Source: a virus (taxonomy: Duplodnaviria > Heunggongvirae > Uroviricota > Caudoviricetes). Taken from it: a stretch of DNA of 41,923 nt. The stretch is taken from the IMG/VR virus record IMGVR_UViG_2630968543_000002. One strand, given 5' to 3'. The position numbers and the translations under genes are program-made. The notes under the pieces were generated by a model, which was not told the origin of the DNA, ran no database searches, and saw nothing but the letters and a program-made list of their open reading frames with translations. Shown here in pieces: positions 2,796 to 38,531 of the stretch (positions are counted from its first letter, which is position 1; each line of letters starts with the position of its first letter).

Positions 2796-3818
2796 TTACT
2801 CGAATTCTGTACGCATATCGTTAAGCGTCATCATGAATTTTTGGTGATATTCATCACCGAGCTTTTCAGCCATGGTGTTAATTTCATTTTCAGCGCGCTT
2901 GAACATCGTTTTTGCATCTTCAGCAGATGGATCCAGGCTATTAAGTATCGCGATGATATATTCTCGAGCTTCTTCTCGTTCTGAATCTGAAATTGGCGAT
3001 AGGTGTTGACGCTCATCGTCAACTACGGAATATTCACCAGTGATAACAGCTGCGTTATCTTGGCTAAGTCCAGCTTCAGCGCGCTCATCCATAACAACAG
3101 CCTTCTGCATCTCAATAGAAACAGGAAGATATTTGAACAGTCGGCGAATTACTGTTTTTTTAGCCATCTCATCGAAGTGATCAACCCATGGGCCACTGCT
3201 ACCGGCTTTGCTCAGTGCACGAACTTTCTCAACGTCTGCCCGGCTCATAACTTCAAATTGGACTCCACCATCTTTCAGTCGTGCAACGGCGTAAACGTGC
3301 GTTAATTCTCCGCGGTCACCTGTTTCGCAAGGTAAATGCTCGAGCGTTTCTTCCAGGCCGTATGAGTAGCTGAATTTGTCGTTTGTATGTACGGTACGAG
3401 CCGAGATACTCAGGATCTGCCCAGAGCGGCGGGCAAGGTCAATCATTCCGCGATAGCCGATAATCAGCTGTGCTTCTGTAGATACGGTTTCCCATCTTCC
3501 ATTTACTTTCTGGCGTTTGTCGAACGGTATCAGGTAAGCGTGTCCAAGAGCTCCACCTGGTTCAAGACCCAATTGGGCACATTGCATAATTGCCCCCAGG
3601 AAGCTGGCTTGGTCGCATGATGCAAGTTTTGGAACCTTTCGGATCTCTGTGGTTGCTATGCGCGCCAGACGGTCTGCTGTCATGTGCTTTGGAAGTGCCA
3701 AAGCCATCTGGGCTTTTATTTTTGGGTCTGCCAGAAGTCCGGCCAGAGTTGTTGGTTTCTCATTATGATGTGCAACTTGGTTACCGGTAGCCGCTGCCTT
3801 AAGTGCATTGATAGACAT
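2796..3818 (-). CDS. recT: RecT-family single-strand annealing recombinase
   Basis: 340-aa ORF with strong RecT signature (RIATTEIRKVP...LGLEPG...GHAYLIPF...QLIIGYRGMIDLARRSGQI...THVYAVARLKDGG...FEVM...GPW...EMAKKT.IRRLFKYLPVSIE). Confidence 0.9.
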   Translation of the reverse strand: MSINALKAAATGNQVAHHNEKPTTLAGLLADPKIKAQMALALPKHMTADRLARIATTEIRKVPKLASCDQASFLGAIMQCAQLGLEPGGALGHAYLIPFDKRQKVNGRWETVSTEAQLIIGYRGMIDLARRSGQILSISARTVHTNDKFSYSYGLEETLEHLPCETGDRGELTHVYAVARLKDGGVQFEVMSRADVEKVRALSKAGSSGPWVDHFDEMAKKTVIRRLFKYLPVSIEMQKAVVMDERAEAGLSQDNAAVITGEYSVVDDERQHLSPISDSEREEAREYIIAILNSLDPSAEDAKTMFKRAENEINTMAEKLGDEYHQKFMMTLNDMRTEFE

Positions 3819-5184: not shown

Positions 5185-5274
5185 TTACCTCGGCTTGTTA
5201 CCGTTGAGGTAATGGTTATGCGTATTTGGTTTGATGTCAATAGATATGAGTTAAAAAAATTACCCATAAGGTAA
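5185..5274. promoter_or_regulatory. Left operator/promoter region (OL-like): two perfect TTACC-N5-GGTAA palindromes (5198..5212, 5260..5274) plus a TTACC half-site at 5185..5189
   Basis: Direct reading; a minus-strand TTGACA -35 hexamer lies between the two sites (plus 5235..5240, as tgtcaa). Confidence 0.65.
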
Positions 5275-5287
5275 TCTTGATGGCAAT

Positions 5288-5309
5288 AAAAAAGCCGCCA
5301 TGAGGCGGC
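5288..5309 (-). terminator. Rho-independent terminator downstream of the repressor gene
   Basis: GCCGCC-ATGA-GGCGGC hairpin (5294..5309) followed on the minus strand by a 6-U tract (plus A-run 5288..5293). Confidence 0.6.
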
Positions 5310-5331
5310 TTACTTGCTGAAAACTATAGTT

Positions 5332-5916
5332 TTATTGTTTATTTTTTTCGTTCTGGTTGATGACAAATTCAATGTAACTTTCGATCTTTGCTTTCTCGGT
5401 TTCGGGTAACAATGCGTAGCGCGAGCGGTCATAGTTGATGGTCGCAGGGTCGTGCGGGTGAATCAGTAATTCATAGCCGTGACGCCCGAATGCGGATGCA
5501 ACATTCTCCAGGGTGGAAATGGAAACGCTGACCTCATTGTTTAACAGGCGGCTGATTGTTACCTGGGCGACGCCGGATGCGCGGTGAAGTTTTCCCTGTG
5601 TTGAAAGGTCGCGGCTTTCGCTCATCCAGCGTTCCAGGTTGTGAGCCGCCAGCTGACCAATGTCGCTTGGGCCGACAGGCTGAAAACCTTCCTGAGAAAG
5701 CGAGCGATCGATATCAAGCCAGTTACGGGGTTTATTGGCGGCAGCTTCAATTTTTCGCGCAACCTGGTCGCCGATAACCTTCTTGCCAAGAGCCCAGCGG
5801 TTTACCAGATTTGCCTGAGTTCCAAGTTTTTCTGCCATCCGCGTCTGAACACCATTGAATTCACGGTCGATCAAGTCGTTGAGATTTTGCCTGCGGACGT
5901 CCTGGATACTTTTCAT
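5332..5916 (-). CDS. Prophage repressor with two tandem HTH domains (CI analogue); no S24 peptidase domain evident
   Basis: 194-aa ORF with two HTH-like segments (QTRMAEKLGTQANLVNRWALGKK and GVAQVTISRLLNNEVSVSISTLENVA); divergent from the Cro-like gene across an operator-rich spacer. Confidence 0.75.
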   Translation of the reverse strand: MKSIQDVRRQNLNDLIDREFNGVQTRMAEKLGTQANLVNRWALGKKVIGDQVARKIEAAANKPRNWLDIDRSLSQEGFQPVGPSDIGQLAAHNLERWMSESRDLSTQGKLHRASGVAQVTISRLLNNEVSVSISTLENVASAFGRHGYELLIHPHDPATINYDRSRYALLPETEKAKIESYIEFVINQNEKNKQ

Positions 5917-5971
5917 TTTCTGGAAAATCGCCTCATATATGAATCAGTAGATGATTCAATTTAAAGCAATA

Positions 5972-6034
5972 TTACCCAACAGGTAAATGCACCTCATAGG
6001 TAACTATCCTTGATTTTTGTTACCTTATGGGTGA
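5972..6034. promoter_or_regulatory. Right operator region (OR-like) between repressor and cro: one perfect site (5972..5986) and two degenerate sites (5989..6003 GCACC-N5-GGTAA; 6020..6034 TTACC-N5-GGTGA)
   Basis: Direct reading; the third site lies between a TTGATT -35 (6011..6016) and a GAATAT -10 (6034..6039) of the putative rightward promoter. Confidence 0.65.
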
Positions 6035-6070
6035 ATATTTATTATCTGAAATAAATATCAGGCAATAGCT

Positions 6071-6301
6071 ATGAGCGATAACGGACATTTCGATTTCAAA
6101 AAGCACTGGCTTGCACTTACTCCGGATGAGCGTGAAGCCTTCGCACAGGAAGCCGGAACGACGAGTCACTATATCCAGACTCACTTAACAGGTAAGCGCA
6201 AAATGCCAGGTAAGGTATTGATGAATGGGCTTTTTAAAGCCTGTAAAACAAGACAATGGCTGCGCTCAAAAGCAGAACTGGCATACTTCTTCTACTCATG
6301 A
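6071..6301 (+). CDS. Cro-like small DNA-binding protein
   Basis: 76-aa ORF divergent from the repressor, followed by a terminator; putative HTH segment EAFAQEAGTTSHYIQTHLTGKRKMP. Confidence 0.65.
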   Translation: MSDNGHFDFKKHWLALTPDEREAFAQEAGTTSHYIQTHLTGKRKMPGKVLMNGLFKACKTRQWLRSKAELAYFFYS

Positions 6302-6323
6302 TATCCATCCACAACCCTCTGTA

Positions 6324-6348
6324 GACCGCCATCCGGCGGTCTTTTCAT
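6324..6348 (+). terminator. Rho-independent terminator after cro (tR1-like)
   Basis: GACCGCC-ATCC-GGCGGTC hairpin followed by TTTTCAT. Confidence 0.6.
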
Positions 6349-6356
6349 ATCTATTC

Positions 6357-6371
6357 GTACCTCAAAGGTAA
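6357..6371. promoter_or_regulatory. Operator-like site GTACC-TCAAA-GGTAA (one mismatch) just downstream of the cro terminator
   Basis: Direct reading. Confidence 0.4.
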
Positions 6372-8302: not shown

Positions 8303-8317
8303 TTACCTGTGAGGTAA
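8303..8317. promoter_or_regulatory. Perfect operator palindrome TTACC-TGTGA-GGTAA, immediately preceded by GATAAT (-10-like)
   Basis: Direct reading. Confidence 0.55.
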
Positions 8318-8364
8318 TAAAATATTCTAAACTCTATTGATTTCGTGTCTTATGTGGTTTTTAA

Positions 8365-8379
8365 TTACCTCAGGGGTAA
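8365..8379. promoter_or_regulatory. Perfect operator palindrome TTACC-TCAGG-GGTAA, 4 nt upstream of the 8383 start codon; TATGTGGTT motif 5 bp upstream (8351..8359)
   Basis: Direct reading. Confidence 0.55.
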
Positions 8380-14945: not shown

Positions 14946-15019
14946 TCCGCTGGTGGGGATAATGTCGTTGATATCCTCTGATGAGGATAAAACAAAGCCA
15001 GCTCATCGGCTGGCTGTTT

Positions 15020-15031
15020 GTGACATGTCAC
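15020..15031. repeat. Perfect 12-bp palindrome GTGACATGTCAC, copy 2 of 3
   Basis: Direct reading; lies between convergent terL and the minus-strand ORF. Confidence 0.7.
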
Positions 15032-15035
15032 GGTG

Positions 15036-15455
15036 TTACTTAATGGCATTAAATCCAGCGTTGATGGCTTCCGCAATATTGATGGCTCTTGTTTTATCGA
15101 AGTGCCCATTCTGAATAAGCGTCGCATGCAGGCATTGTAACTTCATGTTGTATAAGTGTTCGCTCATGTAATCATGATCACTTTTTGCTTTAGCGTAAAC
15201 AGCGCGAGAAATATCAAACATATCGCCTTTTTCCATTTCAGAACGTTGTGCTGTTATCCAGTCATGGAACGTAACGCTAGTACCATGGTCTTCGCTAAGA
15301 GTTAACCCGGCCAGTCCCTCACTCTGAATTACTTCGTAATGCATTTCATTACCAGCAAAAACGCCATAAAAAACGCAGTCTTCAGCTTGAACGATACGAG
15401 AATATTTTAATGGCCATTCATTTAGATACTTAGCCAACATATCAATTGTTTTCAT
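15036..15455 (-). CDS. Hypothetical protein (139 aa) of unknown function, encoded opposite to the structural genes (moron-like)
   Basis: ORF with AAGGTGA Shine-Dalgarno 5 nt upstream; on the same strand and downstream of the phage tRNA; no recognisable motifs. Confidence 0.6.
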   Translation of the reverse strand: MKTIDMLAKYLNEWPLKYSRIVQAEDCVFYGVFAGNEMHYEVIQSEGLAGLTLSEDHGTSVTFHDWITAQRSEMEKGDMFDISRAVYAKAKSDHDYMSEHLYNMKLQCLHATLIQNGHFDKTRAINIAEAINAGFNAIK

Positions 15456-15466
15456 GATCTCACCTT

Positions 15467-15490
15467 AAAAAAATGCCCGGCGAACCGGGC
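15467..15490 (-). terminator. Rho-independent terminator between the tRNA and the minus-strand ORF
   Basis: GCCCGG-CGAA-CCGGGC hairpin followed on the minus strand by seven U (plus A-run 15467..15473). Confidence 0.6.
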
Positions 15491-15653
15491 GAACTGGAAG
15501 CAATGAGTTATGCCTTCCGTGGCTGTACGGGTTTACAGCATGAAGTCATCGCAATGGCGTCCTGCTGTAAAAAGGGCGGTGATAGTCCTTCAAGGGAAAC
15601 CATCACCGCCAAGCACCTGGAACTTCTGGCATCACGGTCCTTAGGCGTGATTC

Positions 15654-15730
15654 TGGCGCGGCATGCAGGATTCGAACCTGCGACCAACCGCTTAGAAGGC
15701 GGTTGCTCTGTCCAACTGAGCTAATGCCAC
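15654..15730 (-). tRNA. tRNA-Arg (anticodon UCU), phage-encoded, 77 nt with encoded CCA
   Basis: Manual fold: acceptor GUGGCAU/AUGCCGC, D-arm GCUC-AGUUGGACA-GAGC, anticodon stem ACCGC/GCGGU with loop CUUCUAA, T-arm GCAGG-UUCGAAU-CCUGC; close to, but distinct from, E. coli argU as recalled. Confidence 0.85.
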
Positions 15731-16052
15731 AACGCTGAGAGCACTTAGCCTGTTAAGGCGCCACACTTTGTCGCGGCTCCATAAATGCTCTCATCGTTGT
15801 ACCCTCGTCTCTTCCGAGGTGTCACACCGAATCGCCGGGATGGTGAATCCCCGTGCGCGGAATAAAACCGCTCGACTTGCACATTCCGGCTACCTGGTTC
15901 GTTTGCCCGAGCAAGGGAGGGTGCCCCTTAAACGTATCCAGACCGCTATCGGCGCATGTGCCATACGCCGTACTGCTCAAAATAAAAGCTCACCCCACCT
16001 GTTCAATTTAACGACAAGCCAGTCAGATTAGTAACTGGAGTGAATTCTTTGA

Positions 16053-16067
16053 TTACCTGAAAGGTAA
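16053..16067. promoter_or_regulatory. Perfect operator palindrome ATTACC-TGAAA-GGTAAT upstream of the portal operon; TATGTGGTT motif 44 bp downstream (16111..16119)
   Basis: Direct reading. Confidence 0.55.
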
Positions 16068-16157
16068 TAATTCGCGCATTAAATGTCAACTGTCTACGAT
16101 AAATAAATCATATGTGGTTAAATTGGTAATAATTTAATTGCGTACGGAGTCATTGAT

Positions 16158-16364
16158 ATGTGCATGGGTAGCTCACCATCAGTGCCTGCAACACCAGAAG
16201 TTCAGGCAGCACCACAGGAGCAGGATGCCGCCGTTGTTGATGCCCGCGACGAAGAAACTCGTCGCCGTCGCGCTGCTGCTGGTCGTAGTTCTACGCTGCT
16301 TACCGGTTCTCAGGGCGACACATCAACCGCTAATACCAGCGGTAAAACGCTGCTTGGTCAGTAA
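16158..16364 (+). CDS. Small hypothetical protein (68 aa, low complexity) upstream of portal
   Basis: Preceded by GGAGTCATTGA, the same 11-nt initiation region that precedes the portal start (16367..16377). Confidence 0.4.
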   Translation: MCMGSSPSVPATPEVQAAPQEQDAAVVDARDEETRRRRAAAGRSSTLLTGSQGDTSTANTSGKTLLGQ

Positions 16365-16378
16365 CCGGAGTCATTGAA

Positions 16379-18058
16379 ATGGCGGAAACAACTAAAGAGC
16401 GATTGAACAAACAGTTCGCACAACTTGAAAGCGAGCGTCAGTCGTTCGAGCCGCACTGGCGCGAGTTGAGTGATTACATCAACCCGCGTGGTTCCCGCTT
16501 TCTGACTTCTGAGGTCAACCGTAACGATCGACGCAATACGCGCATTATTGATTCGACCGGGACTATGGCGGCGCGCACTCTCGCCAGCGGCATGATGTCT
16601 GGTATCACAAGCCCCGCCCGTCCGTGGTTTCGCCTGGCTACGCCAGATCCTGAAATGATGGATTATGGCCCTGTTAAGTTGTGGCTTGAGGCGGTGCAGA
16701 ACCGCATGAACGATATGTTCAATAAGTCGAATCTCTACCAGTCGCTGCCGCAGTTATACGGAAGCCTCGGCACATACAGCACTGGTGCAATGGCAGTGCT
16801 GGAGGATGACGAGGACATCATTCGCACAATGCCATTCCCGATAGGCAGTTACTACCTGGCTAACTCACCTCGTGGCAGTGTGGACACCTGTTTTCGCAAG
16901 TTCTCTATGACTGTTCGTCAGCTTGTTCAGGAGTTCGGGCTAAATAACGTCAGCGAATCTGTAAAAAGCATGTGGGAAAGCGGCACCTACGAGAAGTGGA
17001 TTGAAGTGATGCATTCGGTTTACCCGAACATTGACCGCGATACATCGAAGCTGGATAGCAAGAACAAGCCATTCAAATCGGTTTATTACGAGGTTGGTGG
17101 CGATAACGACAAGTTGTTGCGTGAGTCCGGATTCGATGAGTTTCCAATTATGGCTCCGCGCTGGGAAGTTAACGGCGAAGATGTTTATGGATCATCATGC
17201 CCGGGTATGCTGGCGCTTGGACCTGTTAAGGCATTGCAGCTTCTCCAGAAGCGTAAGTCGCAGTTGATTGATAAAGCCACCAATCCGCCGATGGTTGCTC
17301 CGAATTCCCTCAAGAATCAGCGCGCCTCCCTTCTTCCTGGTGACATCACGTATATCGATCAGATTACTGGTCAGGATGGTTTCAGGCCTGCTTATCTGGT
17401 TAACCCCAGTACAGCAGATTTGGTGGCAGACATTCAGGACACTCGTCAAATCATTAACAGCGCCTACTTTGTCGATCTGTTCATGATGTTGCAGAACATC
17501 AATACCCGCTCGATGCCTGTGGAAGCGGTGATCGAAATGAAAGAAGAAAAACTTCTGATGTTGGGGCCGGTTCTGGAGCGCCTGAACGACGAATGTCTTA
17601 ATCCTCTCATTGATCGCTCTTTCTCGATGATGGTGCGTAAAAACATGCTGCCGCCACCGCCAGACGTGATGGAAGGTATGCCCCTGAAGGTCGAATACAT
17701 TTCCGTCATGGCTCAGGCGCAGAAGTCTATCGGCCTGTCCAGTCTGGCGTCCACGGTTAACTTCATTGGTCAACTTGCGCAAGCGAAACCAGAAGCTCTC
17801 GACAAACTCAACGTTGATCAGGCGATCGATGCATTCGCTGATATGTCCGGAGTGTCTCCAACCGTCATTGTTCCGCAGGAACAGGTTGAGCAGGCTCGCC
17901 AGCAACGGGCACAGCAACAACAGCAGCAACAAATGATGGCGATGGGGATGGCGGCGGCACAGGGTGCTAAGACGCTAAGCGAAGCTAAAACTTCGGATCC
18001 GAGTGTTTTGTCAGCTATGGCGAATGCAGTTAGTGGTCAGGGTGGGCAATCACAATGA
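16379..18058 (+). CDS. Portal protein (T7 gp8-like head-to-tail connector)
   Basis: 559-aa ORF directly after terminase; Gln/Met/Ala-rich C-terminus (QQQQQQQMMAMGMAAAQGA) resembles the T7 gp8 C-terminus as recalled. Confidence 0.8.
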   Translation: MAETTKERLNKQFAQLESERQSFEPHWRELSDYINPRGSRFLTSEVNRNDRRNTRIIDSTGTMAARTLASGMMSGITSPARPWFRLATPDPEMMDYGPVKLWLEAVQNRMNDMFNKSNLYQSLPQLYGSLGTYSTGAMAVLEDDEDIIRTMPFPIGSYYLANSPRGSVDTCFRKFSMTVRQLVQEFGLNNVSESVKSMWESGTYEKWIEVMHSVYPNIDRDTSKLDSKNKPFKSVYYEVGGDNDKLLRESGFDEFPIMAPRWEVNGEDVYGSSCPGMLALGPVKALQLLQKRKSQLIDKATNPPMVAPNSLKNQRASLLPGDITYIDQITGQDGFRPAYLVNPSTADLVADIQDTRQIINSAYFVDLFMMLQNINTRSMPVEAVIEMKEEKLLMLGPVLERLNDECLNPLIDRSFSMMVRKNMLPPPPDVMEGMPLKVEYISVMAQAQKSIGLSSLASTVNFIGQLAQAKPEALDKLNVDQAIDAFADMSGVSPTVIVPQEQVEQARQQRAQQQQQQQMMAMGMAAAQGAKTLSEAKTSDPSVLSAMANAVSGQGGQSQ

Positions 18059-18351
18059 CAGATTACGAAGACGATCAACTGAAAGAAGAAAACGCCCGTA
18101 AGCAACGTGACATGGCACAGCGTGAAATTGATGACATTCGCTTTGTCATGAGCAGTGAACAGGGGCGTCGCGTTGTCTGGTCGGTGCTGGAGAAAGGCCG
18201 GGTGTTTTCCGCTATCTCTCCGATGGATGCCATGGCAATGGCATTTAATGAGGGGCAACGCAATCTGGCGCTGGAACTGTTTCAGCGCGTTATGGCGCAT
18301 TGCCCTGAACAGTATTTGAAGATGGCCAAAGAGGCCAGTGAACAGGAGTGA
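18055..18351 (+). CDS. Hypothetical virion-module protein (98 aa)
   Basis: ATGA overlap with the portal stop. Confidence 0.5.
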   Translation: MTDYEDDQLKEENARKQRDMAQREIDDIRFVMSSEQGRRVVWSVLEKGRVFSAISPMDAMAMAFNEGQRNLALELFQRVMAHCPEQYLKMAKEASEQE

Positions 18352-18353
18352 TC

Positions 18354-19049
18354 ATGAGTTTATTTGAGCGTTTGCTGTATCGCCGTCTTTGCAATGAGCA
18401 ACAAGTCGATGGTGGGGCAGCACCGGCTGCGTCAGAACCGTCAGCGCATGCAGGTGATAACCCTGCTCCAGCTGGTGATCCATCACAACAGGAAGGTGAT
18501 AAGCCACAACCTGTTGTTGATGTCGATAAACCTGATGATGAAAAAAAATCTGAAAACGATAAGCAGGGTGAAAAAAAGGACGGCGATAAACCAGAGGGTG
18601 CGCCGGAGAAGTACGAATTTCATGCTGCCGAAGGCGTAGAGCTGGATACAGAAGCGTTGAAGGAATTCGAGCCAGTGGCGCGAGAACTTAACCTGACCAA
18701 CGAGCAAGCGCAAAAGCTGGTTGATGCTTATCCGAAGATTCTGGCAGGTGTTCAGCAGCGCCAGGCAGAAGCCTGGCAGAAAACAACCGAGCAGTGGGCT
18801 GCGGATGTAAAAGCTGACAAAGAAATCGGTGGCGACAAGTTGATTTCTAACCTTAGCGCCGCACAGCGTGCGCTTGACCAGTTCGGGACACCTGAACTCA
18901 AAGAATATCTGAACACCACCGGGCTGGGTAATCACCCTGATCTGGTCAAAACGTTCGTGAAAATCGGAAAGGCGATGTCTGAAGATGGCATGGTCACCGG
19001 TGGTAATGAAGGCCAGCGTAGTGCGGCCGAAGTGCTCTATGGCAAATAA
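18354..19049 (+). CDS. Putative scaffolding / capsid assembly protein
   Basis: Position between portal and major capsid; highly acidic Lys/Asp/Glu-rich N-terminal half; GGAG Shine-Dalgarno. Confidence 0.65.
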   Translation: MSLFERLLYRRLCNEQQVDGGAAPAASEPSAHAGDNPAPAGDPSQQEGDKPQPVVDVDKPDDEKKSENDKQGEKKDGDKPEGAPEKYEFHAAEGVELDTEALKEFEPVARELNLTNEQAQKLVDAYPKILAGVQQRQAEAWQKTTEQWAADVKADKEIGGDKLISNLSAAQRALDQFGTPELKEYLNTTGLGNHPDLVKTFVKIGKAMSEDGMVTGGNEGQRSAAEVLYGK

Positions 19050-19057
19050 GAGAGGAA

Positions 19058-20050
19058 ATGACAATGGCTGTTAAAGGCTTAACTGCGCTAACGCTGGCTG
19101 ACTGGGGTAAGCGCGTCGATCCAGATGGGAAAGTCGATAAGATTATCGAGCTTCTCGGTCAAACTAACCCGATCCTTCAGGATATGCCTTTTGTCGAAGG
19201 TAACCTTCCTACCGGACACAAAACCACCATTCGTTCTGGTTTACCTTCAGCTACCTGGCGTTTGCTGAACTATGGCGTACAGCCAAGCAAATCAACCACA
19301 GTGCAGGTAACCGATTCCGTTGGCATGCTGGAAACCTATGCTGAAGTCGATAAGTCACTGGCTGATCTGAACGGTAATACCGCCGAATTCCGCCTGTCTG
19401 AAGACCGCGCATTTATTGAAGCGATGAATCAGCAGATGGCGCAGACGCTGTTTTATGGTGATTCCAGCGTTAACCCTCAGCAGTTTATGGGACTGTCCTC
19501 CCGCTATTCCAGCCTGTCTGCGGGTAATGCTCAGAACATCATTGATGCTGGTGGCACGGGTACAGATAACACCTCAATCTGGTTAGTGGTGTGGGGCGAA
19601 AACACCGTGCATGGCATCTTCCCGAAAGGGAAGAAGGCTGGCATCCAGATGGAAGATAAAGGCCAGGTGACACTGGAAGATGCTAATGGCGGCAAGTACG
19701 AAGGCTATCGCACCCATTACAAATGGGATAACGGACTTGCTCTGCGTGACTGGCGTTATGTTGTTCGCATTGCAAACATTGATGTCAGCAATCTTTCAGA
19801 ACCTTCCTCTGCCGCAAATATTGCGAAGTTGATGGTTAAAGCACTGCATCGCATTCCAAACCGTGGCATGGGCCGCCCGGTGTTCTACATGAACCGCACT
19901 GTAGGCCAGGCTCTTGATCTGCAGTCTCTGGAGAAAACATCTCTGGCGATTAGCGTAAAAGAGACTGAAGGCGAGTGGTGGACGTCATTCCGTGGTGTAC
20001 CAATCCGTGAAACTGATGCGCTTCTGGAAACAGAAGCCCGCGTGGTGTAA
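19058..20050 (+). CDS. Major capsid protein
   Basis: 330-aa ORF following the scaffold gene; GAGAGG Shine-Dalgarno; size and position typical of a T7-like or HK97-fold major capsid protein. Confidence 0.75.
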   Translation: MTMAVKGLTALTLADWGKRVDPDGKVDKIIELLGQTNPILQDMPFVEGNLPTGHKTTIRSGLPSATWRLLNYGVQPSKSTTVQVTDSVGMLETYAEVDKSLADLNGNTAEFRLSEDRAFIEAMNQQMAQTLFYGDSSVNPQQFMGLSSRYSSLSAGNAQNIIDAGGTGTDNTSIWLVVWGENTVHGIFPKGKKAGIQMEDKGQVTLEDANGGKYEGYRTHYKWDNGLALRDWRYVVRIANIDVSNLSEPSSAANIAKLMVKALHRIPNRGMGRPVFYMNRTVGQALDLQSLEKTSLAISVKETEGEWWTSFRGVPIRETDALLETEARVV

Positions 20051-20101
20051 CGCCTGTTATTAACCTGTGGGTCGCAACAGGCCCACTAATGGAGAAAGAA
20101 G

Positions 20102-20539
20102 ATGATCACCGACAAACTGTTGATGTTCTCCGAAGCACAGGCGGTAACTGATACCGCGGCTTCTACTGACGTAATCGATCTCGGTCCAATTGACGGAAAC
20201 CGTCGCGATATCGGCGTGGGTTATCCGCTTGAGTTTTGGGCGCTGGTTAACGAAGCCGCCACGGCAAGTGGTGAGGCAACTGTAAACATCCAGTTGCAGA
20301 CGAGTGAGAATAACAGCTCATGGTCCACTATTTATGATAGTGGCGCACTGGCAAAGGCCACCCTGACAGCAGGTAAGCGAGTTGTTTCTGCAAAGGTGCC
20401 AGCCGGTGTTCAGCGATATCTGCGTGTTAACTACTCCGTCGCAACTGGCCCACTAACGGCTGGCAAATTCACTGCGGGTATCAATCTTGATGTTGATGCC
20501 AATACGCCGTATCCGATCCGCTCAAAAGTAACTGGTTAA
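20102..20539 (+). CDS. Hypothetical structural protein (145 aa), possible capsid decoration or adaptor
   Basis: GGAG Shine-Dalgarno; position after the major capsid gene. Confidence 0.5.
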   Translation: MITDKLLMFSEAQAVTDTAASTDVIDLGPIDGNRRDIGVGYPLEFWALVNEAATASGEATVNIQLQTSENNSSWSTIYDSGALAKATLTAGKRVVSAKVPAGVQRYLRVNYSVATGPLTAGKFTAGINLDVDANTPYPIRSKVTG

Positions 20540-33031: not shown

Positions 33032-33075
33032 TTACCTTTAAGGTAATAGTACGCTATTCACCCCCAGTCTGCAAT
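33032..33075 (-). promoter_or_regulatory. Sigma70-like promoter (-35 TTGCAG, 17-bp spacer, -10 TACTAT) with a perfect operator TTACC-TTAAA-GGTAA (33032..33046) overlapping the -10/+1
   Basis: Direct reading of the minus strand. Confidence 0.6.
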
Positions 33076-33119
33076 CTGTACAGAATTATTTAAAGGCACA
33101 TCCCTGTGCCGCCGTTCCG

Positions 33120-33812
33120 TCAGAAAAATCCTGCTTTATCGTTGATGTACTCCGCGTGGGTCTCGATATCACGCAGGCATTTGCTCACACCGACGATGTA
33201 GCAGAACATGGTGGTCAGCTCCGCCGCCGCGCCCGATACGTCGTGCCCGTCTTCCTGTAACTGGTTCAGCAGATTCATCAGCAGTGAGTTCTCCGTCAGG
33301 CCGAGAACACCAGACGGCGAGTGAATCAGACTGCGGTAGCCGGGCTTCAGTGGGGCGCTGTAGGTTTTGTTCTCTATCTTCATTGCCTGCATCACTGCTG
33401 ACGCCGTGGCGTTGGCAACCTGGTCGGCAACCATCTTTATGCGTTCTTCCTGCGGGAGCGAGTTTTTAATGTAGCTTCCGGTGCGGCGGATCTGAGGAAG
33501 AACCTCACCTGTAACCCATTCAAGAAATCTGAATGCTCTCGTTCCCTCTGTCATTGCCTCTTTGCAACGCAGAATAAGGATGTAGAGACCTGATTCTGAA
33601 ACGATGGATAGTTCTTGTATTCCACCAGGGGTCTGTATTGAATGCAGCCCCTTTTTGTTCCAGCCTTTTTTATCAAGTTTTCTCGCTTGTGTAACATCAA
33701 TATTCAAAGCATTGCACACATCTTTGGTGACAAACCAAGGTTCTCCGTCAATCATGAACATACGGATCTGGCAGGATGACTCAAAGGAAAAGATGGAAGG
33801 TTTGGTATTCAT
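33120..33812 (-). CDS. Bro-N domain protein / putative antirepressor (Ant-like)
   Basis: N-terminal Bro-N signature (IFSFESSCQIRMFMIDGEPWFVTKDVCNALNI); AAGGTGA 5 nt upstream of ATG 33812 (ORF opens at 33857 with TTG); C-terminal domain paralogous to gene 34959..35216. Confidence 0.75.
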   Translation of the reverse strand: MNTKPSIFSFESSCQIRMFMIDGEPWFVTKDVCNALNIDVTQARKLDKKGWNKKGLHSIQTPGGIQELSIVSESGLYILILRCKEAMTEGTRAFRFLEWVTGEVLPQIRRTGSYIKNSLPQEERIKMVADQVANATASAVMQAMKIENKTYSAPLKPGYRSLIHSPSGVLGLTENSLLMNLLNQLQEDGHDVSGAAAELTTMFCYIVGVSKCLRDIETHAEYINDKAGFF

Positions 33813-33966
33813 GGCGATCACCTTTGTAGTTAGGTTAATCACCACCGCTGAGACCAATCAGATGGTGGTGAACTGTGCAGAGTTGGTCTTACCGGCTACA
33901 AAGGAACCCGGCGCACCTTTCGGTGCCCCCACACAGCCCACCATAGAATAGGTGCGCTTTACACAT

Positions 33967-34080
33967 AAAAAAACCGCTTATGCGGCATATGTGCCTCTGT
34001 AGTAATCCGGGAGACCAATCCCGGCACTGGATTTTGCCAGTGCCCGATTACTATGGCACAAGAGGAGTGCGATGTAAATT
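33967..34080 (-). ncRNA. Candidate structured leader or small RNA upstream of the Bro-N gene (tentative)
   Basis: Minus-strand promoter (-35 TTGATT, 17-bp spacer, -10 TATCAT) abutting the operator at 34080..34094; two stable hairpins (34007..34024 and 34024..34043) and a short GC stem followed by seven U (33967..33985). Confidence 0.25.
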
Positions 34081-34094
34081 TACCGAAAAGGTAA
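34080..34094. promoter_or_regulatory. Perfect operator palindrome TTACC-GAAAA-GGTAA
   Basis: Direct reading. Confidence 0.55.
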
Positions 34095-34172
34095 TGATAA
34101 GCGCGAAAAAACATTAAAATCAACCGTATTTGGTTGATTGCGTTTAACGCTTGATCACCTGAAAGCAAGATA

Positions 34173-34187
34173 TTACCTTTAAGGTAA
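34173..34187. promoter_or_regulatory. Perfect operator palindrome ATTACC-TTTAA-GGTAAT preceded by AGATAT (-10-like), 21 nt upstream of the 34208 start codon
   Basis: Direct reading; core 15-mer identical to the site at 33032. Confidence 0.55.
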
Positions 34188-34207
34188 TGTTATTGTGAGG
34201 AAAAGCA

Positions 34208-34936
34208 ATGGAAGTTTTCTGGATAGTTGTTGGTGTGGTTGCGGTGATTATTTACGTTATCAACCAGAACAAGACTAAGATCTCTGATCGTACGGTCGTT
34301 AATCAGAACAAAACGATAAAGACCGAAGATGGGGAGATAACGATTAATCGTACACAGGTGATAGAGCACACATCTACTCAGTTTCAAAAAACTGGAGGTA
34401 ACGCTCCTGATATTTCCGTACCTCCTGCTTATGATAGTGCGGTAATCCAGACATATTATAAACAGCAGGAGTTAGCAAAAGAGAGGCAACTGATTCAGCC
34501 AAAGCCGTTTACAGCTGAGCTTCCACCTGGAGTGTCAACGCGTCCGGCATATCATGGAAGATTCCCTGGTGATGACATATCGTCTCAGTCATTTAAAAAA
34601 GCACCTCAGGCAGTATCAGAGCCAGCAAGAATATCTTCTGTATCGCCGCCAAAAGAAGAATCAGCTAACAGAGTTTCAAGCGGTAGCAAGCAGTGCTTGC
34701 GATGCAGAATAAACCTTCCATATGAAAAATTCAGGAAATCGTCAAAAAATCCGGATGGATTGACTAAGTGGTGTGCAAGGTGTCTCGATGGCCCAAAGAA
34801 TACACGTCATATGAAGTGGTGCCCAATTTGTAATGTCCGCAGAAAACGAACCAGCTTTTACCCTAATAATCAAAATGCGGACGGCTTAATGGCATGGTGC
34901 AAAACGTGCTGGGACGAGCACAAAGCGAAACGATAG
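34208..34936 (+). CDS. Membrane-anchored protein with two C-terminal zinc-ribbon-like repeats (unknown function)
   Basis: N-terminal hydrophobic helix (EVFWIVVGVVAVIIYVI); two repeats of C-x2-C-x16-17-DGL-x3-WC-x2-C; GAGG Shine-Dalgarno. Confidence 0.65.
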   Translation: MEVFWIVVGVVAVIIYVINQNKTKISDRTVVNQNKTIKTEDGEITINRTQVIEHTSTQFQKTGGNAPDISVPPAYDSAVIQTYYKQQELAKERQLIQPKPFTAELPPGVSTRPAYHGRFPGDDISSQSFKKAPQAVSEPARISSVSPPKEESANRVSSGSKQCLRCRINLPYEKFRKSSKNPDGLTKWCARCLDGPKNTRHMKWCPICNVRRKRTSFYPNNQNADGLMAWCKTCWDEHKAKR

Positions 34937-34952
34937 GCCGCTCTTGCGGCCT
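34937..34952. terminator. Hairpin between convergent genes (possible bidirectional terminator)
   Basis: GGCCGC-TCTT-GCGGCC followed by TTTAAATTT. Confidence 0.45.
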
Positions 34953-34958
34953 TTAAAT

Positions 34959-35216
34959 TTACCTGGTTTGTTTTCGTAATTGTTCGGCACAATAGTCGAG
35001 ATGTGTTTGCAGATCCTGCATAGACATCTGTGAGCTGGTGACGTAGTTAATCAGTGCAGTCAGTTCGGCAAGTGGGCCATCGACATTAAATCCATCCTTA
35101 TTGAGATCCCGGAGTAATTTCATCAAGTGCGATCCCTCCACCAGTGACCTGACGCCTCCCGGCGTGTGAATCCTTTCGGTAAATCCGTCTTCCAGTGGAT
35201 AGTGATACTGCTGCAT
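34959..35216 (-). CDS. Hypothetical protein (85 aa), paralogue of the C-terminal domain of the Bro-N protein
   Basis: ATG at 35216 with GGAG upstream; TERIHTPGGVRSLVEGSHLMKLLRDLNKDGFNVDGPLAELT aligns with RSLIHSPSGVLGLTENSLLMNLLNQLQEDGHDVSGAAAELT. Confidence 0.55.
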   Translation of the reverse strand: MQQYHYPLEDGFTERIHTPGGVRSLVEGSHLMKLLRDLNKDGFNVDGPLAELTALINYVTSSQMSMQDLQTHLDYCAEQLRKQTR

Positions 35217-35292
35217 CTTATCTTCTCCATGCAATAACTGTATATTTATACAGTAGCAAATAATTTGTTTGCTATCCAGCACGTTTTGCAAA

Positions 35293-35307
35293 TTACCTGA
35301 AAGGTAA
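35293..35307. promoter_or_regulatory. Perfect operator palindrome ATTACC-TGAAA-GGTAAT between divergent gene 34959..35216 and the tailspike; TATGTGGTT motif and a GGTAAT half-site follow at 35339..35358
   Basis: Direct reading. Confidence 0.55.
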
Positions 35308-35411: not shown

Positions 35412-38400
35412 ATGACGGTCTCAACCGAAGTTGACCACAACGAATACACAGGTAACGGCGTTACGACATCGTTTCCGTATACTTTTCGAATTTTCAGAAA
35501 ATCCGACCTGGTTGTTCAGGTGTCTGACCTGAACGGGAACGTAACAGAATTGGTTCTGGATACCGGTTATACGGTAACTGGGGCGGGCACTTATAGTGGC
35601 GGTTCTGTGGTTCTTCCGTCGCCGCTTGCTACTGGATGGAGAATTACGATAGATCGTGTGCTTGATGTAGTGCAGGAGACAGACCTTCGCAATCAGGGAA
35701 AGTTTTTCCCCGAAGTGCATGAAGATGCCTTTGACTACCTGACGATGCTGATCCAGCAATGTTTTGGATGGTTCAGACGTGCATTGATGAAACCATCTTT
35801 GCTTGCAAAATATTACGATGCAAAGCAAAACAGAATTTCTAACCTTGCAGATCCATCACTTGAACAGGACGCTGTAAATAATCGCTCAATGCGTAATTAT
35901 GTCGATGCTGCAATCGCCGGGGTTGTTGGTGGTTTTGGTTGGTTTATTCAGTATGGTTCTGGGGCAGTATACCGAACGTTCCAGGATAAAATGCGTGATG
36001 CTATTAGCCCCAAAGATTTTGGAGCTGTTGGTGATGGTATAAATGACGATTCTACTGCAATAAGCGCGTGCCTTGAAGCCTCATCTCCAGGTTATAAAAT
36101 TGACGGATTAGGGCTTACTTTTAAAGTATCAACTCTTCCGGATGTCAGCCGATTTAAAAATGCTCGTTTTTTATTTGAGAGAATACCGGGTCAGCCTCTT
36201 TTTTATGCTTCTGAAGATTTTATCCAGGGAGAGTTATTTAAAATTACAGATACACCGTGGTACAACGCCTGGACGCAGGATAAAACGTTTGTATATGACA
36301 ATGTCATCTATGCGCCTTTTATGGCTGGAGACCGCCATGGTGTAAATAACCTCCATGTTGCATGGGTTCGCTCAGGAGATGACGGGAAGACCTGGACAAC
36401 GCCGGAATGGCTTACAGATTTACATGAAAACTATCCCACAGTTAACTATCACTGCATGAGTATGGGGGTTGTCAGAAATCGCCTTTTTGCTGTAATTGAG
36501 ACGCGGACCGTGAGCGGAAATAAACTGCAGGTTGCAGAGTTGTGGGATCGTCCAATGAGTCGCAGCCTTCGCGTTTATGGTGGTATAACGAAAGCAGCAA
36601 ATCAGCAAGTCGCTTATATTCGCATTACTGATCACGGATTATTTGCTGGTGATTTTGTCAACTTCTCAAACTCTGGTGTTACAGGTGTTACCGGGAATAT
36701 GACGGTGACTACTGTTATTGATAAAAATACTTTTACAGTTACGACGCAAAATACTCAGGTTGTGGATCAGAATAACGAGGGTAGATACTGGAGTTTTGGT
36801 ACATCATTTCACTCGTCACCATGGAGAAAAACCAGTCTTGGAACTATTCCTTCTTTTGTTGACGGAAGCACTCCTGTTACTGAGATTCACAGTTTTGCGA
36901 CGATTAGCGATAACAGTTTTGCTGTTGGCTACCATAATGGTGATATTGGTCCACGCGAGCTTGGGATACTCTATTTCTCTGATGCTTTCGGTTCTCCTGG
37001 TAGCTTTGTTCGCAGACGCATACCTGCAGAATATGAGGCGAATGCATCTGAGCCATGTGTAAAATATTATGATGGCATTCTGTATCTGACGACCAGGGGG
37101 ACATTAAGTACTCAACCCGGTAGTTCATTGCACAGAAGCTCTGATTTAGGTGCATCATGGAATTCTCTTCGCTTCCCAAATAATGTTCATCACTCAAACC
37201 TTCCTTTTGCCAAAGTTGGCGATGAGCTGATTATTTTTGGCAGTGAGCGCGCATTTGGTGAGTGGGAAGGAGGAGAACCTGATAACCGTTATGCAGGAAA
37301 TTATCCAAGAACATTTATGACCAGAGTTAACGTCAATGAGTGGAGTCTGGATAATGTAGAGTGGGTTAATGTTACTGATCAGATTTATCAGGGCGGAATA
37401 GTTAACTCTGCGGTTGGTGTTGGTTCAGTTTGTATCAAAGACAACTGGCTGTACTACATTTTCGGTGGGGAAGACTTTCTAAACCCATGGAGCATAGGGG
37501 ATAACAACAGAAAATATCCTTATGTTCACGATGGTCACCCGGCTGATTTGTATTGTTTCAGGGTGAAAATTAAACAGGAAGAATTTGTTTCAAGGGATTT
37601 TGTCTACGGAGCCACTCCTAACAGAACGCTTCCTACTTTTATGTCGACGTCCGGCGTGAGGACGGTTCCTGTACCCGTTGATTTCACAGATGATGTTGCC
37701 GTCCAGTCACTGACTGTCCATGCAGGTACATCAGGACAAGTTCGCGCGGAAGTCAAACTGGAGGGCAATTACGCCATTATTGCGAAGAAAGTACCGTCTG
37801 ATGATGTTACCGCTCAGAGATTAATCGTTAGCGGCGGTGAAACAACGTCTTCAGCAGATGGTGCAATGATAACGTTGCATGGTTCCGGAAGCAGTACTCC
37901 ACGTCGCGCGGTATATAACGCACTCGAACATCTTTTTGAGAACGGAGATGTTAAACCTTATCTTGATAATGTAAATGCTCTTGGTGGTCCGGGAAACAGG
38001 TTCTCGACAGTTTATCTTGGCTCCAATCCTGTGGTTACCAGTGACGGAACATTAAAGACAGAGCCGGTCTCTCCTGACGAAGCATTGCTGGATGCCTGGG
38101 GTGACGTCAGGTATATCGCTTATAAATGGCTGAACGCTGTCGCTATAAAGGGAGAAGAAGGGGCGAGGATACATCATGGTGTAATCGCGCAGCAACTTCG
38201 TGATGTTCTTATTTCTCACGGACTCATGGAAGAAGAAAGCACAACATGCCGCTATGCCTTTCTTTGCTATGACGATTATCCCGCAGTATATGATGACGTC
38301 ATTACTGGCCAAAGGGAAATTCCGCTGACTGATAATGACGGGAGCATCATTGTTGATGAGGATGATAATCCAGTGATGGTAATGGAAGACATCATTGAGC

Positions 38401-38531
38401 GCGTTGAAATAACGCCAGCAGGATCTAGATGGGGGGTCAGACCTGATCTCTTATTCTATATCGAGGCAGCATGGCAGCGCAGAGAAATGGATAAGATAAA
38501 AGAGCGGATTCAGTCTCTGGAAGAACGTTAA
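35412..38531 (+). CDS. Tailspike / receptor-binding protein with predicted beta-helix and C-terminal chaperone-like domain
   Basis: 1039-aa ORF; conserved N-terminal particle-binding region (TGNGVTTSFPYTFRIF), pectate-lyase-like start (ISPKDFGAVGDGINDDSTAI); GGAG Shine-Dalgarno. Confidence 0.8.
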   Translation: MTVSTEVDHNEYTGNGVTTSFPYTFRIFRKSDLVVQVSDLNGNVTELVLDTGYTVTGAGTYSGGSVVLPSPLATGWRITIDRVLDVVQETDLRNQGKFFPEVHEDAFDYLTMLIQQCFGWFRRALMKPSLLAKYYDAKQNRISNLADPSLEQDAVNNRSMRNYVDAAIAGVVGGFGWFIQYGSGAVYRTFQDKMRDAISPKDFGAVGDGINDDSTAISACLEASSPGYKIDGLGLTFKVSTLPDVSRFKNARFLFERIPGQPLFYASEDFIQGELFKITDTPWYNAWTQDKTFVYDNVIYAPFMAGDRHGVNNLHVAWVRSGDDGKTWTTPEWLTDLHENYPTVNYHCMSMGVVRNRLFAVIETRTVSGNKLQVAELWDRPMSRSLRVYGGITKAANQQVAYIRITDHGLFAGDFVNFSNSGVTGVTGNMTVTTVIDKNTFTVTTQNTQVVDQNNEGRYWSFGTSFHSSPWRKTSLGTIPSFVDGSTPVTEIHSFATISDNSFAVGYHNGDIGPRELGILYFSDAFGSPGSFVRRRIPAEYEANASEPCVKYYDGILYLTTRGTLSTQPGSSLHRSSDLGASWNSLRFPNNVHHSNLPFAKVGDELIIFGSERAFGEWEGGEPDNRYAGNYPRTFMTRVNVNEWSLDNVEWVNVTDQIYQGGIVNSAVGVGSVCIKDNWLYYIFGGEDFLNPWSIGDNNRKYPYVHDGHPADLYCFRVKIKQEEFVSRDFVYGATPNRTLPTFMSTSGVRTVPVPVDFTDDVAVQSLTVHAGTSGQVRAEVKLEGNYAIIAKKVPSDDVTAQRLIVSGGETTSSADGAMITLHGSGSSTPRRAVYNALEHLFENGDVKPYLDNVNALGGPGNRFSTVYLGSNPVVTSDGTLKTEPVSPDEALLDAWGDVRYIAYKWLNAVAIKGEEGARIHHGVIAQQLRDVLISHGLMEEESTTCRYAFLCYDDYPAVYDDVITGQREIPLTDNDGSIIVDEDDNPVMVMEDIIERVEITPAGSRWGVRPDLLFYIEAAWQRREMDKIKERIQSLEER

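Follow-up and report, generated by a model that had tools for sequence, protein, structure and literature searches.

A widespread structured RNA without an Rfam model leads a tRNA-bearing minus-strand unit of epsilon15/phiV10-like phages and may promote transcription read-through

The EAR RNA of Bacillus is a processive antitermination RNA. Among mobile elements, the conAn system of Gram-positive conjugative plasmids serves antitermination (PMC8191782), and the put RNAs of phages HK022 and HK639 are cis-acting antiterminators that bind the zinc-binding domain of the β′ subunit of RNA polymerase (PMC9378689). Here we describe a structured RNA found in a virus record of 41,923 nt (IMG/VR record IMGVR_UViG_2630968543_000002; this whole stretch of DNA is called the window below). 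It lies between the terminase and portal genes in a minus-strand unit whose order is promoter/operator, structured leader RNA of ~260 nt, transfer RNA (tRNA)-Arg(UCU), two intrinsic terminators, a swappable cargo open reading frame (ORF), here of 139 aa and called ORF139, and a bidirectional terminator. Like lambda N/nut, conAn and EAR, this RNA is an operon-leading element that would give processive read-through, and N/nut and conAn share with it their residence in mobile elements. In contrast to N/nut and conAn, no N-like or ConAn1-like partner was found for it, and no boxA/boxB architecture has been demonstrated.

Positions 15731-15987 on the minus strand are a conserved structured RNA, in which six helices are combined with a pseudoknot and a 19-mer that does not vary (Table 1). 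This is the most informative and most conserved part of the segment, and it had been missed in a preliminary description of the locus that was made from the sequence alone. The 430 nt between the tRNA and the gp3-like gene contain no credible ORF, and the 300 nt nearest to the tRNA have a G+C content of 55-58%. The last base of P6 abuts or overlaps position 1 of the tRNA. To assess the structure, 110 distinct copies were dereplicated to 42 representatives that are <90% identical to one another, aligned, and subjected to an all-against-all covariation scan; as the copies were gathered through the exact 19-mer, the invariance of the 19-mer is partly by construction, and the limits of the family are biased by that sampling. 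The named structure has 93.0% of cells in standard pairs, compared with 29-48% when the 3′ partners are slid by 1-3 columns (n = 42). Double-sided changes occur at 17 pairs (5-9 when slid) and in 122 cells (5-25 when slid), and none of 500 column shuffles reached the observed score. Helices P1, P2, P4 and P5 and the pseudoknot are supported by covariation, the pseudoknot through one covarying pair that is C-G in 37 sequences and A-U in 5. Among 26 distinct copies of P6, the compensatory variants GAGAGCA/UGCUCUC, AAGAGCA/UGCUCUU and AAGGCG/CGCCGUU were seen. Moreover, ~45 positions of the alignment are invariant, and the minus-strand fold beats its shuffles with z = -2.8 (plus strand, z = -1.95).

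The covariance model R1, whose score for the window copy is listed in Table 1, gives 117-186 bits for the copies of phiV10, PAS61, cdtI, 1720a-02, mEp390, P1 and SopranoGao and for 17 of the 18 additional bacterial loci that were searched. Epsilon15 (locus L003, 2647-2738) retains only the first ~90 nt of the RNA (44 bits) and has no tRNA; a ~150-nt insertion follows its operator. In the epsilon15 record, an RNase III site is annotated over a portion of the remnant and lies on the other strand. A search of 15731-16060 with Rfam 15 returned nothing at the gathering level, and the sole match at E ≤ 5 was a chance-level one to STnc300 (21.8 bits against a gathering score of 80), which lies upstream of the core. 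Conservation of 15740-16010 through a small ORF was rejected because of indels of arbitrary length and paired compensatory changes. A boxA-like reading of the P6 3′ arm (UGCUCUY) was also dropped, since the motif is base-paired and is absent from copies of the P1 type.

In blastn, 15735-16060 matched 91 phage records of several unrelated types, and an annotated feature at the match is almost always absent. The matched phages include Uetakevirus members; the lambdoids cdtI, mEp460, mEp390, 2H10, 1720a-02 and Stx2c phages; and P1, P7, D6, SJ46, RCS47, Klebsiella phage SopranoGao and a phage named for Stenotrophomonas. Exact copies of the 19-mer (GGTAGCCGGAATGTGCAAG) were counted in at least 120 IMG/VR contigs; among species-representative genomes, 24 contain it, nearly all of them from Enterobacterales. 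By blastn the element is present in 1843 of 5426 complete Escherichia coli genomes (34%), at 1925 chromosomal and 554 plasmid places, and the feature beneath the RefSeq matches was ‘none’ among the matches listed. Two metagenome bins labelled Oscillospiraceae and Bacillota (L145 and L157) also hold the exact 19-mer, L157 with 186 bits under R1; these are most likely mis-binned contigs of enterobacterial phages. A full-text literature search for put-like RNAs, HK639, yfdP small RNA and phiV10 tRNA, mostly outside subscription journals, met the RNA nowhere besides one paper on a small RNA, sRNA-17, that is discussed below. We conclude that the RNA is a strongly supported, very widespread and unannotated family without an Rfam model.

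Its genomic contexts fall into a few arrangements. At 47 of 131 loci, ARAGORN calls tRNAs no farther than 1.5 kb from the motif, 56 in total, and every one of them is on the same strand as the RNA. At 30 loci of the Uetakevirus arrangement, tRNA-Arg(UCU) begins right after P6. At 17 loci of the phage P1 arrangement, a tRNA-Ile2 (anticodon CAU, which ARAGORN calls tRNA-Met) ends ~15 nt before helix P1. In phage P1 itself the RNA (136.8 bits; locus L008, 2983-3185, or 71.0-71.2 kb of the record) lies between trnI and ban, inside the C1-controlled ban operon, and none of the 535 annotated features of that record is placed on it. In lambdoids of the CPS-53/mEp460/cdtI type, the RNA follows directly after the cI-like repressor gene and starts ~35 nt past the inferred pL start. 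A RefSeq example of this type runs from the cI stop and the cI terminator through two operator-like repeats, a TTGCAT-17-TATCTT promoter and ~35 nt to helices P1 through P6; ~125 nt past P6 come a hairpin, GCGGUACCAG..CUGGUACCGC, then UCUUUUUACA, and then yfdP, yfdQ, yfdR ... int (yfdP-yfdT/int). The first gene product, YfdP, was considered as an analogue of N and rejected: it is acidic, lacks an arginine-rich motif and has no Pfam match. Hence there is no N-like gene at the position of N in these lambdoids. The homology between cdtI and the window extends four bases into the tRNA and no further, and thus the tRNA appears to have been gained or lost precisely inside an older module of RNA plus terminator.

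A region of the same mEp460 type, in a prophage of E. coli K1 RS218, was the source of sRNA-17, for which no Rfam match was reported (PMC7719688). Its placement relative to our RNA rests on the primer sequences given in that paper. The primers of the authors' ‘promoter fragment’ bracket the structured RNA, which they did not recognise, and the 193-nt sRNA-17 lies immediately downstream, in the place that tRNA-Arg takes in the window. The 5′ end of sRNA-17 (position 3741 of locus L135, corresponding to window 15731) falls within the 3′ arm of P6, where the window tRNA begins, which points to processing by an endonuclease at the P6 base. Expression of yfdP rose 95-fold in the sRNA-17 deletion mutant (PMC7719688), which is uninformative here because a resistance cassette had replaced the terminator.

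Downstream of the RNA there are usually terminators, and in the window two of them lie between the tRNA and ORF139. A consensus scan found four terminator-like hairpins on the minus strand, compared with 1.9 expected: t1, t2, t3 and a weak one at 16038-16019. The preliminary description had mentioned a hairpin with a 9-bp stem at 15575-15610, which was confirmed: its stem can be lengthened to 14 pairs, and CTTTTT comes next (the 3′ run reads CUUUUUACA), so that it is terminator-like; we call it t1. It is homologous to the hairpin plus UUUUUACA downstream of the RNA in lambdoid copies. A homologous hairpin, GGCGGU..ACCGCC+UUUUUACA, is found again in copies from Uetakevirus and lambdoids; it recurs in many copies, and its stem shows compensatory changes. 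The hairpin of t2 (15490-15475) has six G-C pairs, and t2 ends 1 nt 5′ of the Shine–Dalgarno (SD) sequence of ORF139; at the same position epsilon15 has GCCCAC-UUCG-GUGGGC before an unrelated ORF, i.e. a compensatory change. As t1 and t2 precede it and t2 is 1 nt from its SD, ORF139 would be reachable only by read-through. The third hairpin, t3, which the phiV10 record annotates as a rho-independent terminator, can by its sequence end transcription from either side, of TerL as well as of the minus-strand unit. As a separate observation, the loops of the conserved terminator-like hairpins (window 15575-15610; L135 3866-3912) carry CCCUU and the P2 apex (columns ~99-102 of alignment A4) carries YCCUU, which are anti-SD-like and kept across phage types.

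At the other end of the unit, the candidate promoter has a perfect -35 element, which together with its spacing is kept in phiV10, PAS61, epsilon15 and a Klebsiella relative, a range that reaches from E. coli to Salmonella and Klebsiella. The 15-bp palindrome TTACCT-N3-AGGTAA that overlaps this promoter occurs 16 times in the window, with 0.86 expected, at 5198-6371, 8303-8379, 12845, 16053 and 33032-35307, all of which are regulatory-looking intergenic regions. The site at 16053 is kept in relatives, and its homologue in epsilon15 is annotated as a repressor binding site; the set is presumably made up of the repressor's operators. Because the operator-like palindrome overlaps the unit's only good promoter, we infer, at the level of consensus sequences, that the lysogen keeps the unit repressed and that it becomes active upon induction or infection. 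The unit as a whole is therefore probably repressor-controlled.

To account for these arrangements, we propose that the nascent leader RNA would act in cis on the RNA polymerase transcribing it, which would then pass downstream terminators, in the manner of HK022 put. In the window the polymerase would pass t1 and t2 and ORF139 would be expressed; in lambdoids it would pass the terminator before the yfdP-type genes. The tRNA would be cut from the transcript at the P6 base and would add decoding of AGA for the AGA-rich tail and tailspike genes, and ORF139 would be a cytoplasmic two-domain accessory protein made in lytic growth. Read-through by the nascent RNA is proposed because ORF139 lies beyond t1 and t2, and put-like action is proposed because N-less lambdoids have a put-like architecture of promoter, complex RNA, terminators and genes. 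Control of transcription read-through is the most likely role of the RNA, and we give the reading as a whole a probability of roughly 0.42.

The comparison with put can be made in several respects. The put RNAs are promoter-proximal in the early-left operon of N-less lambdoids with terminators downstream, and the lambdoid copies of the new RNA agree with this, while the phage P1 copy does not; the window unit resembles the put slot in having two terminators before its ORF. Both are structured nascent RNAs with many conserved unpaired nucleotides. On the other hand, put is ~70 nt long (126 nt as annotated in HK639) with two stems, whereas the new RNA is ~200-260 nt with six helices and a pseudoknot; and put comes as a pL/pR pair, whereas the new RNA has one copy per genome and occurs also in P1-like and podovirus genomes, next to tRNAs. 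Helix P1 shares ACGGCG..CAUGCGUCG (6+9 nt) with stem I of HK022 putL, in the same promoter-proximal place, which we take as a lead only; the shared 9-mer is absent from HK022 putR. Since R1 is blind to the put RNAs and putR lacks the string, the new RNA was rejected as a put homologue at the level of detectable homology, and thus it may work like put without being a demonstrable member of its family.

Several observations weigh against this read-through reading. R1 gives no match in the HK022 putL and putR loci or the HK639 putL locus at E ≤ 10, and the RNA is about three times the size of put. The link to terminators is moderate: a sense-strand terminator lies within 700 nt downstream of the RNA in 27 of the 42 representatives, compared with 19 of 42 for the antisense strand by the same crude finder. 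No terminator separates the RNA from ban in phage P1, and epsilon15 retains t2 and an ORF with only the truncated RNA of 44 bits. The 193-nt sRNA-17 of E. coli K1 RS218 was mapped as starting at the P6 base and ending at the terminator downstream of it (PMC7719688); as sRNA-17 ends there, transcription must stop at least partially at the conserved terminator in spite of the upstream RNA. Unless the RNA acts conditionally, there is no obvious benefit in conserving a terminator alongside an antiterminator that is always active. Finally, the promoter and the operator are consensus-level predictions.

Two alternatives are serious rivals. In one of them the unit would be a non-coding RNA operon: the RNA would be a stable processed product acting in trans, as a protein sponge, a ribonucleoprotein component or a ribozyme, freed at the P6 base, with the downstream piece as a second product, the large-loop terminator ending the unit and the ORF obtaining leaky read-through. 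The ends of sRNA-17 from rapid amplification of cDNA ends, which run from the P6 base to the conserved terminator, would fit such an operon, although these data cover the downstream piece and not the structured RNA. The terminator-like hairpin with UUUUUACA is co-inherited ~120-125 nt after P6 in Uetakevirus and lambdoids, the ~45 invariant positions and the pseudoknot are typical of RNAs with a tertiary fold, and the adjacency of tRNAs in two unrelated phage groups suggests shared processing. Nevertheless, the RNA is always inside longer operons and co-oriented with them, and stands at their very start in N-less lambdoids; in phage P1 it is directly followed by ban with no terminator; and Rfam gives no match to a known ribozyme or ribonucleoprotein family. 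We regard a trans-acting RNA as rather unlikely. Still less probable, in our judgement, is a conditional leader, i.e. a riboswitch-like sensor of a small molecule or a large nut-like platform for a protein of phage or host, which would decide on passage of the terminators and tie early or accessory genes to the state of the cell. The aptamer-like complexity and conserved junction of the RNA would suit such a leader, and co-conservation of the terminator makes sense if read-through is regulated. RNAalifold also offers a potential switch, in which the 3′ half of helix P1 (GCACAU) would pair instead with AUGUGC, a part of the 19-mer, but this alternative pairing is invariant and so beyond covariation testing. 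The terminator lies 120-260 nt past the fold with variable or tRNA sequence between, unlike the expression platforms of riboswitches; moreover, no protein common to Uetakevirus, P1 and lambdoids was identified, and no riboswitch family matched.

The preliminary description had seen a simple moron, composed of a codon-supplying tRNA and a gene for lysogenic conversion or defence, with everything else as spacer. The tRNA is real, AGA is enriched and the ORF slot varies among relatives, all as expected for a moron, but the supposed spacer is the most conserved and most widespread part, with covariation, which already contradicts the spacer claim. A lysogenic-conversion role is doubtful, as the unit's promoter is overlapped by a repressor-type palindrome and the ORF stands behind two terminators; no defence family in PADLOC matched the ORF. 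We thus hold the simple moron to be very unlikely. The least credible of the readings is that the element is conserved for a role as DNA, such as a hotspot of recombination, an origin or a signal for packaging. It lies at mosaic boundaries, with lambdoid homology ending exactly at the tRNA start, and adjoins tRNA genes; against this, only one strand tolerates G-U pairs, the six helices and the pseudoknot show compensatory changes, the fold of the minus strand is the better one (z -2.8 vs -1.95), and the strand relation to operons and tRNAs is constant. Apart from the put-like reading in particular, we consider the chances about even that the RNA is an unrecognised class of large functional RNA of enterobacterial phages (a polymerase-modifying antiterminator unrelated to put, a conditional leader sensing a ligand or factor, or a self-processing RNA). 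In phage P1 and a third of E. coli genomes, such an RNA would control how early or accessory transcription starts out, and tRNAs would have been grafted onto it repeatedly.

Table 1. Features of the minus-strand unit in the window, from promoter to distal terminator
Feature	Coordinates	Strand	Evidence
Weaker overlapping candidate promoter, TAGACA-18-AATTAT	16096..16067	-	Scan
Candidate sigma-70 promoter: -35 TTGACA 16089..16084, 17-nt spacer, -10 TACCTT 16066..16061	16061..16089	-	Sequence
Operator-like palindrome TTACCTGAAAGGTAA, overlapping the -10 and the likely start	16053..16067	.	Motif count, epsilon15 annotation
5′ leader hairpin CCAGTTACTAATCTGACTGG, between promoter and RNA core; weak, terminator-like	16019..16038	-	Conserved only within Uetakevirus
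RNA core	15791..15987	-	Model R1 (153.7 bits, E 2e-46), alignment, covariation scan
P1	15970-15950	-	Alignment, covariation scan
P2, closing a variable arm	15941-15931 with 15903-15894	-	Alignment, covariation scan
Invariant 19-mer GGUAGCCGGAAUGUGCAAG, junction after P2	15894-15876	-	Motif search
P3 (variable, window-specific)	15871-15857	-	
P4	15851-15837	-	Alignment, covariation scan
Pseudoknot, P4 loop CACC with GGUG	15845-15842 with 15828-15825	-	
P5, GAAGAGA loop	15819-15803	-	Alignment, covariation scan
P6, basal stem CAACGAUGAGAGCA / UGCUCUCAGCGUUG conserved, apex variable	15799-15731	-	26 copies, fold
tRNA-Arg(UCU), 77 nt, CCA encoded	15654..15730	-	ARAGORN, Rfam, sequence
t1, large-loop hairpin GGCGGUGAU..AUCACCGCC then CUUUUUAC	15569..15610	-	Consensus scan
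t2, GCCCGG-UUCG-CCGGGC then AU7, canonical intrinsic terminator	15468..15490	-	Consensus scan
SD AAGGUGAG (15466..15459) and 139-aa cargo ORF (15455..15036)	15036..15466	-	ORF list, sequence, PHROG, AF2
t3, AGCCAGC..GCTGGCT hairpin, A-run on one side and T-run on the other	14996..15015	.	Consensus scan, sequence

The tRNA itself, which the preliminary description had read as a tRNA-Arg(UCU) with encoded CCA, was confirmed. ARAGORN calls a single tRNA in the 41.9 kb, a tRNA-Arg with anticodon tct at 15654-15730(-), Rfam tRNA model RF00005 gives it 69.4 bits against a gathering score of 29, and the CCA can be read in the sequence. The identity elements of arginine tRNAs are A20, C35 and A/G73; A20, C35 and G73 are present in the Rfam alignment of the window tRNA. 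Compared with the host argU-type tRNA it is 87% identical over positions 7-77, and the 5′ acceptor strand differs. Copies that are at least 95% identical occur in ~500 E. coli records, the identical sequence is annotated as tRNA-Arg in RefSeq, and tRNA-Arg is annotated in the related typing phages 9 and 10, phiv142-3 and SPN9TCW, so this tRNA is already known for the phage group. The phiV10 record has no tRNA feature and instead places a plus-strand coding sequence, PhiV10p04 (locus L001, 2231-2482; window 15473-15724, +), across the tRNA and its trailer; PhiV10p04 is probably spurious, and the equivalent 83-aa ORF of the window should not be called. Like the other argU-type tRNAs that phages carry (argN/argO of Stx phages, the phiV10-type tRNA-Arg and the tRNAs of the P1 ban operon), it is a tRNA of temperate coliphages, here a tRNA-Arg(UCU) in a genome with AGA-rich genes. 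It differs from them in being fused to a structured leader RNA, and is only 79-80% identical to argO of Stx phages.

AGA makes up 7.8 per 1000 codons and 12% of arginine codons in a crude set of non-overlapping ORFs of the window, while E. coli K-12 uses AGA at ~2 per 1000 codons. The codon is absent from the terminase, portal and head genes (0 AGA in the head genes at 16379-20539) and frequent in the large tail, injection and tailspike genes; the 1039-aa ORF at 35412-38531 (+), presumed to encode the tailspike, has 18 AGA and 8 AGG codons. This contrast points to an origin or expression regime of the tail genes that differs from that of the head genes. Thus the AGA enrichment behind the idea of codon supply is borne out, and it fits supply of AGA decoding for late tail genes without proving it.

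For the cargo gene, the 139-aa ORF with an SD at 15036-15455(-) was confirmed as described, with no match to a fold or functional family; AAGGTGAG is located 3 nt 5′ of its ATG. ORF139 is a member of PHROG 4846 (phrog_4846; E 1.9e-87, residues 1-139 of a 140-position profile), whose function is listed as unknown. There was no Pfam match at E ≤ 0.1 and no NCBIfam match, none of the hidden Markov models of defence families in PADLOC-DB 2.0 matched at E ≤ 1, and a sequence profile search of the PDB returned nothing. In searches of 5.8 and 1.84 billion proteins, all homologues were hypothetical proteins of Enterobacteriaceae, the family to which the group is restricted, forming 97 clusters at 90% identity and 28 at 50%. 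With a deeper alignment, AlphaFold (AF2) gave a model with a predicted local distance difference test score (pLDDT) of 83, in which a disordered linker joins an N-terminal alpha/beta domain (1-75) to a helical hairpin at the C-terminus (93-137), and the sequence has no hydrophobic segment. From this model we can only say that ORF139 would be a small cytoplasmic accessory protein of two modules.

The view of the ORF as variable cargo was borne out by comparison with relatives. A phrog_4846 protein occupies the slot in the window, HEMP4, PAS61 and a Klebsiella prophage; an unrelated protein of the Gp49/Sf6-gp66 family (PF13876, E 1e-35) occupies it in phiV10 and epsilon15; and in a Cronobacter prophage a different N-terminus is fused to the C-terminal 50 residues of the ORF139 type, giving a chimera. 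The swap boundary of the slot is the SD. The C-terminal module (window 15036-15200; KSDxDYxxEHLYNMKLQCLHAALIQNGQFDKT..AEAINAGFDAIK) is ~80% identical in proteins P0089-P0095, whose N-terminal domains are entirely different, and P0093, the one checked, occupies the same genomic slot. A distant homology of ORF139 to Gp49/PF13876, considered after a forced MAFFT alignment, was rejected: hhalign gave a probability of 0.2%, and BLASTP aligned only another, non-equivalent stretch of 29 residues at E 0.006. ORF139 thus resembles the Gp49/Sf6 gp66 (PF13876) occupants of moron and accessory slots in temperate phages in position, orientation, terminator-SD junction, small size and lack of a known function, and differs from them in being unrelated to PF13876 and belonging to phrog_4846. 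It adds a member to an accessory family that is uncharacterised, and the variable slot that it occupies is of a known kind.

Plus-strand genes flank the unit: those for TerS (PF03592) and a 491-aa TerL, a 68-aa gp3-like ORF and the portal gene (PF12236, 623 bits). By megablast the region belongs to Uetakevirus, the genus of epsilon15/phiV10-like podoviruses: identity to HEMP4 is 96.5% across the entire query, identities of 96-98% over ~78% of it were obtained for phiV10, O157 typing phages 9 and 10, TL-2011b and others, and in Salmonella phages SPN1S and SPN9TCW the match is confined to the tRNA and its upstream region. A minus-strand gene lies between the terminase and gp3/portal genes in phiV10, PAS61, epsilon15, a Klebsiella prophage and a Cronobacter prophage. 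The segment is thus a genus-conserved minus-strand unit of epsilon15/phiV10-like phages and no private insert; of the earlier wording ‘minus-strand insert between terminase and portal’, location and orientation stand, and ‘insert’ does not, since the unit is kept across the genus.

Elsewhere in the window, at 33861-34043 (-), a C4 antisense RNA (78.6 bits) directly adjoins an isrK-like Hfq-binding RNA (74.7 bits). This pair is a P1/P7-type, immI-like immunity module inside a podovirus, and operator-like palindromes lie at 33032, 34080 and 34173.

The phages of E. coli, P1 among them, have some of the most studied genomes, and yet a pseudoknotted RNA of six helices, carried by 34% of the complete E. 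coli genomes, seems to be nameless, unannotated and without an Rfam model. If it is an antiterminator, it would explain early-left transcription in many N-less lambdoid prophages (CPS-53, mEp460, cdtI and Stx2c types) and the reading of the long ban operon of P1, and it would be a second, structurally different case of control of RNA polymerase by RNA alone. For annotation, tRNA and cargo gene should be treated as parts of a single regulated unit, and the cargo gene is probably expressed in lytic growth and not in the lysogen. The published virulence phenotype of sRNA-17 may need to be re-read in that light.

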